In this document: positions 22,034 through 38,900 of the stretch, one piece after another
Numbering within the stretch: the first letter of the stretch is position 1
Layout: each line of letters starts with the position of its first letter
Assembly (NCBI GenBank): GCA_001787205.1
Contig: MFWB01000011.1
Location: 1 to 47,668 of the forward strand
Direction: 5' to 3'
DNA: 47,668 nt
DNA from: Candidatus Nomurabacteria bacterium RIFOXYB1_FULL_39_16
GTDB taxonomy: Bacteria > Patescibacteriota > Minisyncoccia > Phycocordibacterales > UBA9973
Notes under the pieces: model-generated
Database searches by the model: none
Told to the model about the DNA's origin: nothing
Seen by the model: the letters and a program-made list of their open reading frames with translations, nothing else
Translations under genes and position numbers: made by a program

Positions 22034-23110
22034 ATGAATAAAACAAAAAAAGAGAAAAAGGAAGAAAAAACCATGAACGGATCAGTGCTTAGCGATACCC
22101 TGAAGGCCATTCAGACAAAATTCGGAGAAGGTTCCATAATGAAATTAGGTGACACCCCGAAGGTCAACATCAACACCATCCCGACCGGCTCTATCGGCTT
22201 GGATATGGCGCTCGGTGTAGGCGGAATTCCTCGCGGAAGAATTATTGAAATATTCGGTCCGGAATCTTCCGGTAAGACTACCCTATCGCTCCACATCGTG
22301 GCGGAAGCGCAAAAGTTGGGCGGAGTATGCGCCTACATAGACGCGGAGCACGCAATGGACCCGGAATACACAAAGAAACTCGGAGTAAATATAAATGATT
22401 TGCTCATCTCTCAGCCAGACAACGGCGAACAGGCGCTAGAAATAGTGGAAAGTCTCGTGCGCACGGGGAAAATTGACGTAGTGGTGGTGGATTCTGTCGC
22501 CGCTCTCACCCCGAAAGACGAGATAGAAGGAGATATGGGAGCTTATCATGTGGGCAAACAGGCCCGATTGATGTCGCAAGCGCTCCGCAAACTGACCGCC
22601 ATCGTCGCCAGGTCTAAAACTTGTGTCATTTTCATCAACCAAATCCGTATGCAGATAGGAGTGATGTTCGGCAACCCAGAAACGACTCCGGGAGGCAAGG
22701 CTCTCAAGTTCTATACTTCAGTACGCCTTGATATCCGTAAAATTGCTCAAATTAAAAAGGGAGAAGAAATCGTGGGCTCACGCACTCGTGTGAAGGTGGT
22801 AAAAAACAAAGTCGCGGCTCCATTTAAGCAGACGGAATTTGATATCATTTACAACGAAGGCATCTCTAAAGAGGGCGAGATAATGGCCCTCGGAGAAAAA
22901 TTTAAAATTATAGAAAAAAGCGGAAATTCGTACTTCTATACTCCCAGTGGAGAAAAAGAACCCGCCTCCGCCAAAGGCTCCGGCGAGGCAAGGGAAAAAG
23001 TAAAATTGGGCGTGGGTTATGACTCTACTCGCACTTTCCTAAAAGAAAACGAAAAAATCTCCAAGGAAATCTTGAAGGAAATTAAAAAGAAGTTTGCCGA
23101 GGAAGCCTAA
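22034..23110 (+). CDS. recA: Recombinase RecA
   Basis: [46 protein letters not shown]. Confidence 0.99.
22961..22993. repeat. 33-bp palindromic insert in recA
   Basis: CCCGCCTCCGCCAAAGGCTCCGGCGAGGCAAGG = [11 protein letters not shown], between GNSYFY and KLGVG. Confidence 0.8.
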
Positions 23111-23721
23111 ACTCGCTCGACGTAGTCGCCGGTCTCGGTATTTACACGAATCACATCTCCTTCACTTACGAACATTGGAGCGTTTAAAGTAGTGCCGTTT
23201 TCAAGCGTGATTATTTTATTTCCGCCTTTAGAGGTGTCCCCTCTCACCGCCGGAGGAGCTTCTTTGACTTTGAACTCCATCTTGATAGGCAGAGAAACCT
23301 TTATCACCACCTCCTCGTCGTCATTGTCCCACACCAAAGTGGTGACATTTTCATTTTGTTTTAAAAATTTAGCCGCGTTCCCGATAAGCGCTTCATCTAG
23401 TTTGAATCTCTTACTCTTGTCTTCTGGATCGCAGAACCAATACTCTCCCCCGCCTGCATCGCTATGCGAAGCATTGCGGGCAGGTTTGTTGTGATACAAG
23501 AAAGTGGTATCGCGTTTTACGATATCCGCTTCATCGGCTGAGTCAGCTACGTGATAAGTGGCAGGGAAAACTTTCCCGGAAATCAGACTTCGCAATTTTA
23601 CCTGATTTTGAGGTTTCCTTTGCTGAGTGCGGGCAACGTGAGACTCCACCACCTCGCAAGGCTCATCATCATGAATGATTATTTTTTTCTCGCGAATTTC
23701 GTTGTATTGAAGTTGTGACAT
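23107..23721 (-). CDS. efp: Elongation factor P
   Basis: [29 protein letters not shown]....[22 protein letters not shown]; likely start MSQLQY. Confidence 0.93.
23449..23484. repeat. 36-bp palindromic insert in efp
   Basis: Minus strand CCTGCCCGCAATGCTTCGCATAGCGATGCAGGCGGG = [12 protein letters not shown], inside FLYHNK|GEYWF. Confidence 0.85.
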
Positions 23722-23735
23722 AAAAAATATGCAGA

Positions 23736-23779
23736 CCATACTCCCGGGATATGGGAATTCCCATATCCCGGGAGTATGG
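23736..23779. repeat. Perfect 44-bp palindrome between rpsR and efp
   Basis: CCATACTCCCGGGATATGGGAA|TTCCCATATCCCGGGAGTATGG. Confidence 0.9.
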
Positions 23780-23794
23780 GTGTGGATAACTACT

Positions 23795-23995
23795 TTACTT
23801 AACTACGAAAGGAAGCAGGCCCATAAACCTCGCATGCTTGATGGCGGAAGTGAGAGCGCGCTGATTCTTGGAAGTGACGCCGGACCTCTTGTGGCTTACA
23901 ATCTTGCCGTTTGGATTTAAAAATTTCTTTAAGATTTCAATATCCTTGTAGTCTATGTATTTTATGTTGTTGGCTGAAAAATAATCTTGTTTCAT
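23795..23995 (-). CDS. rpsR: 30S ribosomal protein S18
   Basis: IDYKDIEILKKFL...GKI...SGVTSKNQRALTSAIKHARFMGLLPF; Zn-ligand Cys residues absent. Confidence 0.96.
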   Translation of the reverse strand: MKQDYFSANNIKYIDYKDIEILKKFLNPNGKIVSHKRSGVTSKNQRALTSAIKHARFMGLLPFVVK

Positions 23996-24008
23996 AATTT
24001 TTTATTGA

Positions 24009-35675: not shown

Positions 35676-35700
35676 TTTATTTTATCACAAAATAAGAAAT

Positions 35701-35724
35701 GCCGGCGACTCTCGAGTCGCCGGC
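35701..35724 (-). terminator. GC-rich hairpin after the small ORF
   Basis: GCCGGCGACT-CTCG-AGTCGCCGGC, followed on the minus strand by ATTTCTTATTTT. Confidence 0.65.
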
Positions 35725-35742
35725 TGAACTTTCTTGGATAGA

Positions 35743-35946
35743 TTAGGGCGCCAATGGCACCCTGTGGCTGAGTGGACAGAAGTCAAAGGTTTTGATCCTC
35801 GACTTCGTCAACCTGACCGTCTTGATGGTGTGCTTCCGCTCCCTTCGCTCAGGGGTCCCATCAGAACGAAATCCCCAGTGGTGAAGGAAACGATTCGCCG
35901 CCCTGACAAGTACCTGTTCGGGGGTTAGATCTCGAGAACTCTTCAC
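35743..35946 (-). CDS. Small basic hypothetical protein (67 aa)
   Basis: GTG start preceded by AGGAGGT Shine-Dalgarno and TGATAAAGT; followed by a terminator hairpin. Confidence 0.6.
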   Translation of the reverse strand: MKSSRDLTPEQVLVRAANRFLHHWGFRSDGTPERRERKHTIKTVRLTKSRIKTFDFCPLSHRVPLAP

Positions 35947-35998
35947 TTTTAGACACCTCCTACTTTATCATCACACTGATTTCATAAAATAGCAAGTA

Positions 35999-38900
35999 TT
36001 ATTTCTCAATTTTTATTTTGAATACTAGCTCGTCTATTTTGACTTCCCCGCCTGCTCCCTCATCGTGAGGGCGGGCAGGTTCCCCATCAGTATTTTTGAA
36101 TTCTATTTTAGATACCAATACAGTCTTTTTGAGATCATTTTCAAATTTTTGAATTAATTTTTTACCAGCATCATCTGTTTCAATGAGAAGCGTGATGACA
36201 TCACTCGGAGTAAGCCCCATCTTTTTTCTCATATCTTGCAGGGCACGAGCAAGCTCTCTATAGTCCCCTTCTTCTTTTAACTCTGGAGTTATTTGTATAT
36301 CTAACTCCACCTCATTTTCAATATTTTTATTTTCTACTACTTCTTTTACGTTAATTTCATCTTTGATGAGTTCCGTGTATTCTTCTCCCAGGGCAAAATT
36401 CTTGATTTCTAATTTACTAAGTGGTTGCCTGACTTTTAGTCCGGCTTTTTGTCTCGCTTCAAGACCCAAAGTGACGATATTTCTGGTCTTTTCCATTTTT
36501 TCTATTATTTTTGACTTATCGTCATAAGAAAAAATCTTAAAAAGACTAACAGCGCTACCATTAAGAGCAAGCCATTCGGTCAAATGAACACTTTCCACTT
36601 CGTCAGTGTTACGCAACCTCAGCCAGATATCTTCCGCGGCAAAAGGTGCAAATGGGGCTAATATTTTAGCCAGGGTTTTCAATATATAATATAAGGATTG
36701 TTTCGCATTAATATCTCCTTCTTTGATTCTGTCCCGAGAACGACGTAAATACCAAGTAGAAAGGTCATCTATAAATAAATCTATTGGCCTAGTCGCCTCT
36801 GCCATATCATAATTCTCCATACCTTTCGTAATCTCATCTATCGTTTGAAGTAACCGTGATAAAATCCACTGATCCAACACGGCCTTACTCTCTTCCACAT
36901 TATTAAATTCACATTTTTTATCTCTATAAAGTTCATAAAAGGCGAGAACATTGAAAAGTCTACCAATTATTTTACTTGAAATATCTTGTACTGCTTTCTC
37001 TGAGAAATTTGCATCTTCGCCTTTCATTAAAGTAGAAGACATCAGATAAATGCGCAGCGCATCCGCGCCATATTTGTCTATGAAGCTCCACGGGTCGGGA
37101 TAATTATTCTTTGACTTGGACATCTTCTCTCCATCTCCAGCTCTTATGGTACCAGTCGTGACGACATTTTCAAATGGTGCTTGATTAAAAAGTATAGTGG
37201 ACACAACGTGCGTATAATAAAACCAAGTTCTAACTTGCCCTATATATTCAGCCACAAAGCCTGCCGGAAAATTATTCTTCTGCCAATCTTTGTTTTCAAA
37301 TGGATAGTGGTCCTGCGCGAAAGGCATAGAGCCGGACTCAAACCAACAGTCCAAAACTTCAGGGATACGTACTAAATCATTTCCACATCCACAAACAAGA
37401 TTAACTTCATCAATATACGGTCGATGTAAATCTAATTGCCCGTTAGCATTTCTCGGTAATGATAAAAAATCACATTGAAAAACTTCTGCATTTTGAATTG
37501 CAGGATATTTTATATTTAAATTATCAAATTCCTCTTTTTCACTCAATGATTCGTAACTAGACAACAATACACGAATTGGGTATTCATGAGAAATTATTAA
37601 AATATTCTTTCCTGAGTATTTTTTTTCTAAATCACTTAAAATACCAATCATTCTCTTTCTGATATCTTCACTATTTTCATCTGGTGATTTTTCTGCGCCG
37701 GCTTCTCTTAATTCTTCATTAATAATGATTTGGTCTTTTTGAATATCAAAAAATTCTGCTACAATTTCTGCTGTTTGTTTAGTTCTAGTAAAACTAGAAG
37801 AAATGATTATATCTGGTTTTTTTTCTAAACTTTCTGCTTTTGTTTTGACTTGCTTTATACCTTCTTCTGTTAAAGCGTCATTCGCTTCCCCAGCTTTCAA
37901 GCTTTCTGCATTTTTTGCATTTGCGATAGAAACACCATGTCGCATGACAAAATATTTATTTCCGGATTTTTTGGTTTTATTTTTCAAATCTTCTAAAGAA
38001 CTTACAAAGGTCTGCTCTTTGCATTTCTCGCATTTCCAAATCGGAAGCGGACTTGCCCAATAACGGTTCCTAGAGATATTCCAGTCCGGGGCATTTTCCA
38101 TTATGTTTTTAAATCTCCCTTCTTTTAAGTGAGCAGGAATCCAATTCATATTCTCCGCCCGCTTTATGACATTTTCTTTTACTTTTTTGATATTTATAAA
38201 CCACGAAGGCAGAGCGTAATAAATGATGGGAGTGTCGCAACGATAACAATGCGGATAAGAGTGGATTATTTTTTCCTTAGCAAAAAGAACATTGCTCTTT
38301 GCTAAATATTTTATTACTTCAACATCCGCTTTTTGATGTCCATCCTTGTCTTCGGATTTTGGTTTTACTTGCATACCCGCAAAGTCAGTGACTTCTGGCT
38401 TAAATCGTCCTGTCTCATCCACGTGGATAATCCAAGGAATGTCGTTCTGTTTAGCCAAATTCATGTCGTCCTCTCCGAAGGCCGGAGCCTCGTGCGCCAT
38501 ACCTGTACCCTTATCCAGAGTTACGAAATCCGCATGCCAAACTTTCCAAATATTTTTATTTTTTGCGGCTTCGGAATCTTTATAATATGGGAAAATTGGT
38601 TTATACTTTTTGCCAACTAAATCTCCACCACTGATTTCTCCTAAAACAGAATATTCTTTGTCTTTAAGAACATTTTGTAGTGTTTCTTTTGCAAGTATAA
38701 AAATTTCATCACCCACTTTTGCTTTAACGTAAGTGAAATTTTTATTTATAGCAATAGCCGTATTGCCTGGAAGTGTCCATGGAGTCGTAGTCCAAGCAAG
38801 AAGATAAGTTTTTGGCTCACCTGCCTGCGCAGGCAGGTCTTCTAGTTCAAACTTTACATATACAGAAATATCAGAAATATCTTTATAACTGTTATCCATC

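Follow-up and report, generated by a model that had tools for sequence, protein, structure and literature searches.

Hairpin mini-insertions within core genes of a Candidatus Nomurabacteria genome, and a candidate nuclease partner in its relatives

INTRODUCTION

Rickettsia palindromic elements (RPEs), repeats of about 150 bp reported from Rickettsia, lie in frame within housekeeping genes that have nothing else in common, in a small genome, and are translated as extra loops, according to the excerpts of PMC10969869 drawn on here. A smaller kind of insertion is described below for a 47,668-nt stretch of DNA (hereafter, the window; contig C11:1-47668) from the genome of the ultra-small groundwater bacterium Candidatus Nomurabacteria bacterium RIFOXYB1_FULL_39_16 (G000; 762.5 kb in 18 contigs, approximately 39% GC), where five GC-rich islets interrupt recA, efp, tatD and, twice, ileS. 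Each unit enters the DNA as an exact block without target duplication, and near-identical units are found in unrelated genes and genomes. The islets resemble RPEs, as portrayed in those excerpts, in being inserted in frame into unrelated protein genes, with translation suggested by frame statistics; unlike RPEs, the units measure 18–48 nt, comprise a single hairpin and occur in genomes labelled as several phyla. The reading of the islets as non-autonomous, translated hairpin mini-insertions of a widespread superfamily is well supported.

Short GC-rich palindromes in compact, AT-rich genomes are also found in mitochondria, as the GC clusters of yeasts and as the repetitive hairpin-forming elements of fungi and sponges (passages of PMC8811140 and PMC2800124). 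In the same passages these are described as having shared termini and variable, merging interiors, as being mostly intergenic but also in frame (var1), and as regarded as mobile, with the ends of GC clusters read as AG or TAG target duplications. The present elements share with the yeast clusters, so described, the GC-rich palindromes, the common termini and the in-frame genic copies, whereas their hosts are bacterial rather than organellar and no duplication is seen. Hairpins in relatives of G000 are moreover linked to a nuclease cassette; none is mentioned for GC clusters in the passages of PMC8811140 and PMC2800124 cited above.

Repetitive extragenic palindromes (REPs) and REPINs (REP doublets forming hairpins) are short, imperfect, non-autonomous hairpin repeats of 20–40 nt, sometimes nested; REPs are extragenic, flank their RAYT gene and typically form doublets (PMC3116915, in part). 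Set against this partial description, the elements considered here are likewise short, imperfect palindromic repeats that fold as hairpins and reach many copies (in 66 of 401 genomes, with a maximum of 32 in any one), and RAYT-like genes with flanking hairpins of their own, as in REP systems, are present in G000. They depart from it in that the five window islets and all G000 copies of the 18-mer group described below are genic, and in that no RAYT-like gene of G000 is flanked by the same repeat (six of six have other hairpins). Tandem or nested copies of the elements were seen only incidentally. Unlike miniature inverted-repeat transposable elements, they show no target-site duplication at the five junctions. 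No insertion sequence with these ends was seen, and the sole linked gene encodes a mini GIY-YIG protein, with the hairpin on one side, or on both at a single locus (L048). Palindrome-associated transposable elements of the IS200/IS605 type insert on the 3' side of a fixed target of 4–5 nt; the present elements show only a preference for a purine at position -1 (45 of 53), with no fixed word.

Free-standing GIY-YIG homing endonuclease genes, such as the Seg genes in the tRNA cluster of phage T4, provide a comparison for the linked gene. In relatives of G000 that gene is similarly small, stands alone and is lodged at tRNAs, at different ones in each genome. It differs in encoding only 78–95 aa, with little beyond the catalytic domain, in that its cassette leaves behind a second copy of the 5' part of the tRNA, with the hairpin in it, and in that the hairpin also spreads alone. 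The cassette has the order tRNA piece, hairpin, GIY-YIG gene, intact tRNA; its cleavage and homing activities are putative. Small dispersed repeats are very small hairpin repeats that have been proposed to be mobile, and those of Nostoc-type cyanobacteria, which are mobile candidates of other sequence and other hosts, were also compared. They are mentioned in the part of PMC3116915 used here. Defining features of the three closest described analogues (RPEs, the mitochondrial GC clusters and hairpin-forming elements, and REP/REPIN-RAYT systems) fail in the present case on size, host, target duplication or RAYT adjacency, and no description of these hairpin elements was found in the literature searched, supplementary files being outside its scope.

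RESULTS

Five exact insertions in four host genes

Each host gene was aligned across 30 loci of the same genus (Table 1). The five coding islets of the original prediction retain their coordinates and lengths, all multiples of three, in a genome with a coding share of about 91% by crude open reading frame (ORF) calls. Their peptides do not align without gaps to those of the orthologues: the gaps fall exactly at the islets, so the peptides stand as inserts. Target duplication is absent at all five junctions in these alignments. The empty recA site of orthologues reads GAA AAA NNN GAA AAA. At the efp junction, AAR^36 nt^GGN GAR, an exact 36-nt block is present without duplication, and it is absent in the closest relative (91% identical). 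The site near the 3' end of ileS is empty in 16 aligned orthologues and holds an unrelated hairpin insert at the same place in another relative, G442. The 21-nt copy in tatD is the weakest member of the five.

Table 1. Positions in the window of the five inserted elements and of the genes that carry them
Feature	Position	Strand	Observation
33-nt element in recA	22961..22993	+	Present only in G000 among 30 same-genus recA loci
36-nt element in efp	23449..23484	-	Present in 3 of 30 same-genus efp loci
21-nt element in tatD	25490..25510	-	Read (D)PPVGEAG; only G000 among 30 tatD loci
33-nt element near ileS 3' end	36047..36079	-	Read PARPHDEGAGG; inserted between GAA and GAA
Perfect 18-nt palindrome in ileS	38820..38837	.	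Read (D)LPAQAG; within codon GA[18 nt]T, G000 only
Host gene recA	22034..23110	+	PF00154, E = 8.8e-137
Host gene efp	23107..23739	-	EF-P domains matched (Pfam)
Host gene tatD	25093..25977	-	PF01026, E = 1.3e-73
Host gene ileS	35999..39487	-	PF00133 and Anticodon_1 matched

Folding of the DNA is pronounced for the efp copy (z = -3.4) and weak for those in recA (z = -1.1) and tatD (z = -0.9). In an AlphaFold model of EF-P (mean predicted local distance difference test score, pLDDT, of 83), the 12 extra residues 79–90 form the tip of a beta-hairpin between strands 66–77 and 92–96, with pLDDT below 50 at residues 83–89. The insert is a low-confidence loop between two strands in this model, in keeping with its being tolerated.

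The same host genes carry other insertions in the genus. Inserts of other families occupy the same hot spot in recA of G009 (L110), G442 (L112), G020 (L123) and G033 (L125), and in those relatives a PP(P)xLPL block lies directly upstream of the insertion site. A GSPDAS(I/N)EAFRE block, from AT-richer hairpins, is common to ileS of G442 (L080) and tatD of G437 (L151). The ileS gene of the window further contains an inserted histidine-phosphatase domain (His_Phos_1, E = 3.2e-19) at 37390–37951 (residues ~513–700), in place of which some IleRS proteins of the genus have an HD-like C-terminal extension. In G012 (C4:47296–49431), recA is matched in two pieces within a single open frame of 739 aa, which suggests an in-frame intervening element, possibly an intein.

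Frequency of the motif and limits of the family

The motif CC[CT]GCC-N0-30-GGC[AG]GG is matched 13 times in the 762.5-kb genome, with six of the matches in the window. In 100 local dinucleotide shuffles the genome yielded 1.55 +/- 1.15 matches (maximum 5) and the window a mean of 0.06 (maximum 1), and the pattern read backwards is matched twice in the genome. The motif is therefore commoner than composition predicts. As had been observed from the letters, the efp and 3' ileS copies both have the form CCTGCCCGC...GCAGGCGGG on the coding strand, giving PAR...AGG.

The sixth window match, at 27517–27548, belongs to a different repeat family with five copies in the genome. Two non-coding sites had been taken for related copies, at 935–950 and 34414–34451; neither has the 9-nt family ends, and for that reason they are not counted as members. 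The first is a plain 6-bp GC hairpin (fold z = -3.0) and the second a CCCCG...CGGGG hairpin (fold z = -3.7). In all, three other families of short GC-rich repeats, at 6821–6953 (approximately 10 copies genome-wide), 18631–18650 (approximately 7) and 27517–27556 (approximately 5), are distinct from the CCYGCC hairpin family.

Discrete units recurring in other genes and genomes

The islets had been described as one family with similar ends and variable cores. An inserted mini-palindrome family is borne out, with shared terminal 9-mers (CCYGCCYGC...GCRGGCRGG) and varying interiors, but it is made up of several discrete sub-elements (18, 21, 33, 33 and 36 nt) rather than being one loose family, and each sub-element recurs elsewhere. 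The efp 36-mer, searched for with seven degenerate positions in a one-genome-per-species collection, was found in at least 119 stretches, corresponding to 122 distinct copies in hosts of 32–66% GC. The flanks of these copies are unrelated, and the unit is therefore exactly 36 nt. Among the matches listed, 71 of the 122 distinct copies are letter-identical to the window copy, and the records are labelled Patescibacteria (many classes), Verrucomicrobiota, Kiritimatiellia, Lentisphaerae, "Gammaproteobacteria" and Bdellovibrionales; taxon labels throughout are those of the source records, where mis-binning is possible. In four groundwater or soil metagenomes, many contigs from other loci have similarity bounded exactly at 23449 and 23484, and contigs bounded exactly at 22961 and 22993 correspond to the recA element.

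The recA 33-mer is present exactly in two other genomes, within a 370-aa ORF and a LeuRS-like ORF, in the frame used in recA. The ileS 33-mer is present exactly, and in the same frame, in an rsmH-like ORF of a genome labelled Saccharibacteria. G000 carries the 18-mer, CCTGCCTGCGCAGGCAGG, three times in exact form (in metK, in ileS and in a PAP2 phosphatase gene) and as three variants (in secA, in rsmH and at another PAP2 site); each of the six is genic, lies in phase 2 and reads LPAQAG. When one mismatch is allowed, the 18-mer is present in 18 of 61 genomes (G000 and 60 relatives), against none of 61 for the reversed control, and it is read LPAQAG in 10 of 11 ORFs of at least 166 aa, in different genes. 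Its hosts in relatives, judged from flanking peptides, include cysS-like, prepilin peptidase, topA, RNase R, nusA and rnhA genes.

For the tatD type, 21-mers within three mismatches of the window copy (each with two or three) were found in 9 of 100 relatives, with 13 copies against 2 for the reversed control, and all nine fetched copies lie in ORFs and read LPAGEAG or PASPAGG. The exact 21-mer gave a single match in a global scan, in a genome of 70% GC, which is chance level; its membership therefore rests on the three-mismatch family in relatives. When the end pattern CCTGCCCGC...GCAGGCGGG was searched with 0–30 nt between the ends in 401 genomes of the order, a sample that takes in one unpublished genome (G286) on which none of the conclusions rests, approximately 206 copies were found in 66 genomes, with at most 32 per genome and none for the reversed control. 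G000 itself has only about nine copies of the family.

The 36-mer has no match in the GenBank phage and plasmid collections. Among viral metagenome contigs it occurs in two stretches and the 18-mer in 25, a count not clearly above chance in GC-rich DNA. As for ribosomal or other known RNA as the source of the hairpins, Rfam identified only tRNAs in eight element loci. In one relative (G198, L032:1412–2552), a nucleotidyltransferase/HEPN-like gene pair, as read from the peptides, lies between repeats of approximately 140 nt that contain a 39-nt family hairpin and are spaced exactly 1000 nt apart; this arrangement looks cassette-like.

Length and reading frame

Length types of 18, 24, 30, 33, 36, 39 and 42 nt were found, with an overall range of 18–48 nt, and 127 of 150 listed end-pattern copies are multiples of three (3n). 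It had been proposed that selection for frame acts only inside genes. In the order sample, all nine copies within ORFs of at least 200 aa are 3n, as that proposal has it, but so are 15 of 22 copies, on a recount, within ORFs of at most 135 aa that are probably non-coding (p = 0.0035, computed on 14 of 22). Since most of these short-ORF copies and 127 of the 150 lengths are also 3n, this property belongs in large part to the element types themselves.

The 36-mer is stop-free in five of its six frames. Its copies in ORFs of 180 aa or more number 69, and 50 of these use one and the same frame, while the 53 short-ORF copies are spread over the five open frames (15, 13, 10, 9 and 6). The choice of frame therefore looks like selection on the peptide, with 3n length largely a property of successful element types. 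These same frame statistics are what suggests that the inserts are translated.

A mini GIY-YIG gene adjoining hairpins in relatives

No cognate enzyme had been evident in the original prediction, and none lies beside the islets in G000. A nuclease of the GIY-YIG type had been suggested as acting from elsewhere; physical linkage to hairpins is indeed found in relatives, but G000 is without a hairpin-linked cassette. Clustering of the ORFs neighbouring the elements gave one recurrent family, also the commonest, of 78–95 aa and consisting of a bare GIY-YIG domain (PF01541, E = 9.7e-17 and 7.4e-14). A mini GIY-YIG gene lies within 100 nt of 6 of 27 non-coding copies, compared with none of 19 coding copies. 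In all eight closest homologues of one such gene that were examined (rows 1–7 and 9 of the list of matches), a family hairpin is located 10–60 nt upstream of the start codon and sits within a short 5' piece of a tRNA gene (D-arm pieces). Downstream of the GIY-YIG gene, six of the eight have the split tRNA again in intact form (Phe, Thr, Lys, Lys, Asn and Gln), and the other two end at the contig edge. The same arrangement is found with the 18-mer (L017) and with the 36-mer (L239, in a genome labelled Kiritimatiellae). At the latter locus (3125–3400), the 36-mer lies in the D-loop of both of two 5' pieces of tRNA-Arg arranged in tandem, after which come the intact tRNA and a 95-aa GIY-YIG gene.

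Nested copies were observed, with a 24-mer in the loop of another 24-mer in the order sample and, in metagenome contigs, a 37-nt insert at the centre of the 36-mer. These, together with the D-arm sites in tRNA genes, make single-stranded hairpin loops appear to be favoured targets. The unlinked mini GIY-YIG genes (L338–L357; G000:C9:7600–7660) share a conserved upstream motif, approximately ACCC[TC]GT...TTTAAAT, which is possibly a promoter or an RNA element.

DISCUSSION

The observations as a whole are, on balance, probably best explained by tiny non-autonomous hairpin elements that are read through in genes, that have a candidate GIY-YIG break step and that are stranded in this genome. Such hairpins are candidates for the smallest mobile DNA that cells translate through. 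The nuclease would be supplied by the cassettes that split tRNA genes and carry a hairpin 10–60 nt upstream of the gene. With less certainty, a structure-specific mini GIY-YIG protein might break or nick the DNA, and a hairpin copy would be pasted or copied in at that point. Genic copies probably persist because most types are 3n long and stop-free in most frames; in the frames found they would encode floppy loops rich in Pro, Ala and Gly at surface turns. In the window, the five copies are most likely relics, stranded after past activity or after the action of an enzyme supplied in trans, as no hairpin-linked cassette is present in G000.

For the enzymatic step, break-and-patch by the linked mini GIY-YIG nuclease is a tentative proposal that we favour over single-strand transposition of the RAYT type. 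It is somewhat more doubtful that there is a cross-phylum superfamily of the smallest mobile DNA (in-frame hairpins of 18–48 nt) seeded by tRNA-splitting cassettes of 78–95-aa GIY-YIG genes, with the hairpin as the patch left or used at the break. On that view, hairpins standing alone in essential genes would be the fossil trace of past hits by the nuclease.

Several results weigh against this account. The two mini GIY-YIG genes of G000 belong to the class without an adjoining hairpin or tRNA, the next 18 homologues located have neither alongside, and the linked subclade is present in only 8 of the 66 element-bearing genomes sampled. Co-occurrence of mini GIY-YIG genes with the elements (58 of 66 genomes against 221 of 335; search at E <= 1e-6) gives an odds ratio of 3.7, lower than the value of 9 for Y1 transposases, although this is a blunt test because the search mixes the hairpin-linked subclade with the larger unlinked class. 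The insertion sites have no clear common sequence beyond the purine at -1 (45 of 53 non-coding copies). No empty-site allele was seen at the five sites in the four metagenomes, where the comparison was with contigs, which hide rare variants. A codon tree of efp and recA from 24 genomes is star-like, and the free tree takes three changes for the efp insert, but a single efp-insert clade is not rejected (approximately unbiased test, p = 0.234) and independent gains are not shown. The argument for repeated hits at this one site comes solely from the three efp copies, which match, exactly or nearly, three different globally common 36-mer variants. The mini GIY-YIG nuclease is best regarded as the leading candidate for the enzyme, a possible and unproven one, pointed to by gene arrangement.

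The most serious rival has the units behaving as REP-like elements moved through single-stranded DNA by RAYT or IS200-like Y1 (HUH) transposases in trans; we consider it unlikely, while noting what speaks for it. Y1_Tnp is found in 60 of 66 element-bearing genomes and in 176 of 335 others (odds ratio 9.0, p = 1e-9), while the DDE transposases taken as a control show no such association (10 of 66 against 38 of 335; odds ratio 1.4, p = 0.41). The p-value for Y1 is overstated, since these genomes are relatives of one another, and a general tie to hairpin-rich genomes may underlie the association. HUH chemistry without target duplication is established for IS200/IS605, and the absence of duplication at the present junctions fits it. 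G000 has six RAYT-like Y1_Tnp genes, including one in the window (10941–11609, minus strand), yet each is bracketed by its own, different and AT-richer hairpin, none of the six being of the CCYGCC type. The hairpins cognate to the window gene lie upstream at 11628–11650 and 11733–11755, with the core ...CAGGTATCGGATACCTG... The earlier suggestion of a RAYT acting in trans thus keeps its genome-level co-occurrence but fails on adjacency: a RAYT-like gene lies within only 1 of 197 element loci, and an element is nearby at only one of nine Y1 loci in high-copy genomes. Strand bias, looked for as a sign of lagging-strand insertion, was not found among non-coding copies by two weak proxies, GC skew (32 of 54) and direction of the neighbouring gene (27 against 27).

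It is less likely still that the hairpin is no selfish DNA and is kept by selection as a functional site, whether for protein binding, as a recombination signal or as an RNA structure. The extreme constancy of the 36-mer is what this explanation would draw on, with 71 of 122 copies identical among the matches listed, across hosts of 32–66% GC, and with the T.G and C.A imperfections of the outer stem conserved. The copies, however, are spread over unrelated genes and intergenic DNA, occupy non-homologous sites and fall in disordered loops. They have no recurring position relative to genes and are patchy among close relatives (efp, 3 of 30; recA and tatD, 1 of 30 each).

Ordinary lineage-specific loop expansion or slippage, with coincidental palindromy, is very improbable and, for four of the five islets, already contradicted. 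It would be suited by the variable loops at the host sites, where relatives have other insertions, and by the weak folding of the recA and tatD copies, but the 33- and 36-mers turn up exactly in different genes of further genomes, the reversed controls for the 18-mer and the end pattern gave 0, and shuffles produced 1.55 matches against 13 observed. Equally remote is removal or bypass of the blocks at the RNA or translation level, like the "byp" GC clusters of one yeast mitochondrion, for which the cited part of PMC8811140 gives a precedent in Magnusiomyces capitatus, because the 3n lengths of long-ORF copies (9 of 9) and their preference for one stop-free frame (50 of 69) would be unnecessary if the blocks were skipped.

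If the hairpin units are mobile, the lower size limit of transposable DNA would move to 18–36 bases, and they would represent a selfish element fitted to a gene-dense genome by being translatable rather than by avoiding genes. Hairpin insertion puts loops into core proteins such as RecA, EF-P, IleRS, SecA and MetK, and is therefore a steady source of protein length variation. The inserts can also mislead alignments, phylogenies and structure predictions made for uncultivated bacteria. Near-identical copies under different phylum labels imply a flow of very short DNA across deep groundwater lineages, and the architecture of hairpin, mini GIY-YIG gene and tRNA would point to a concrete candidate enzyme for testing.

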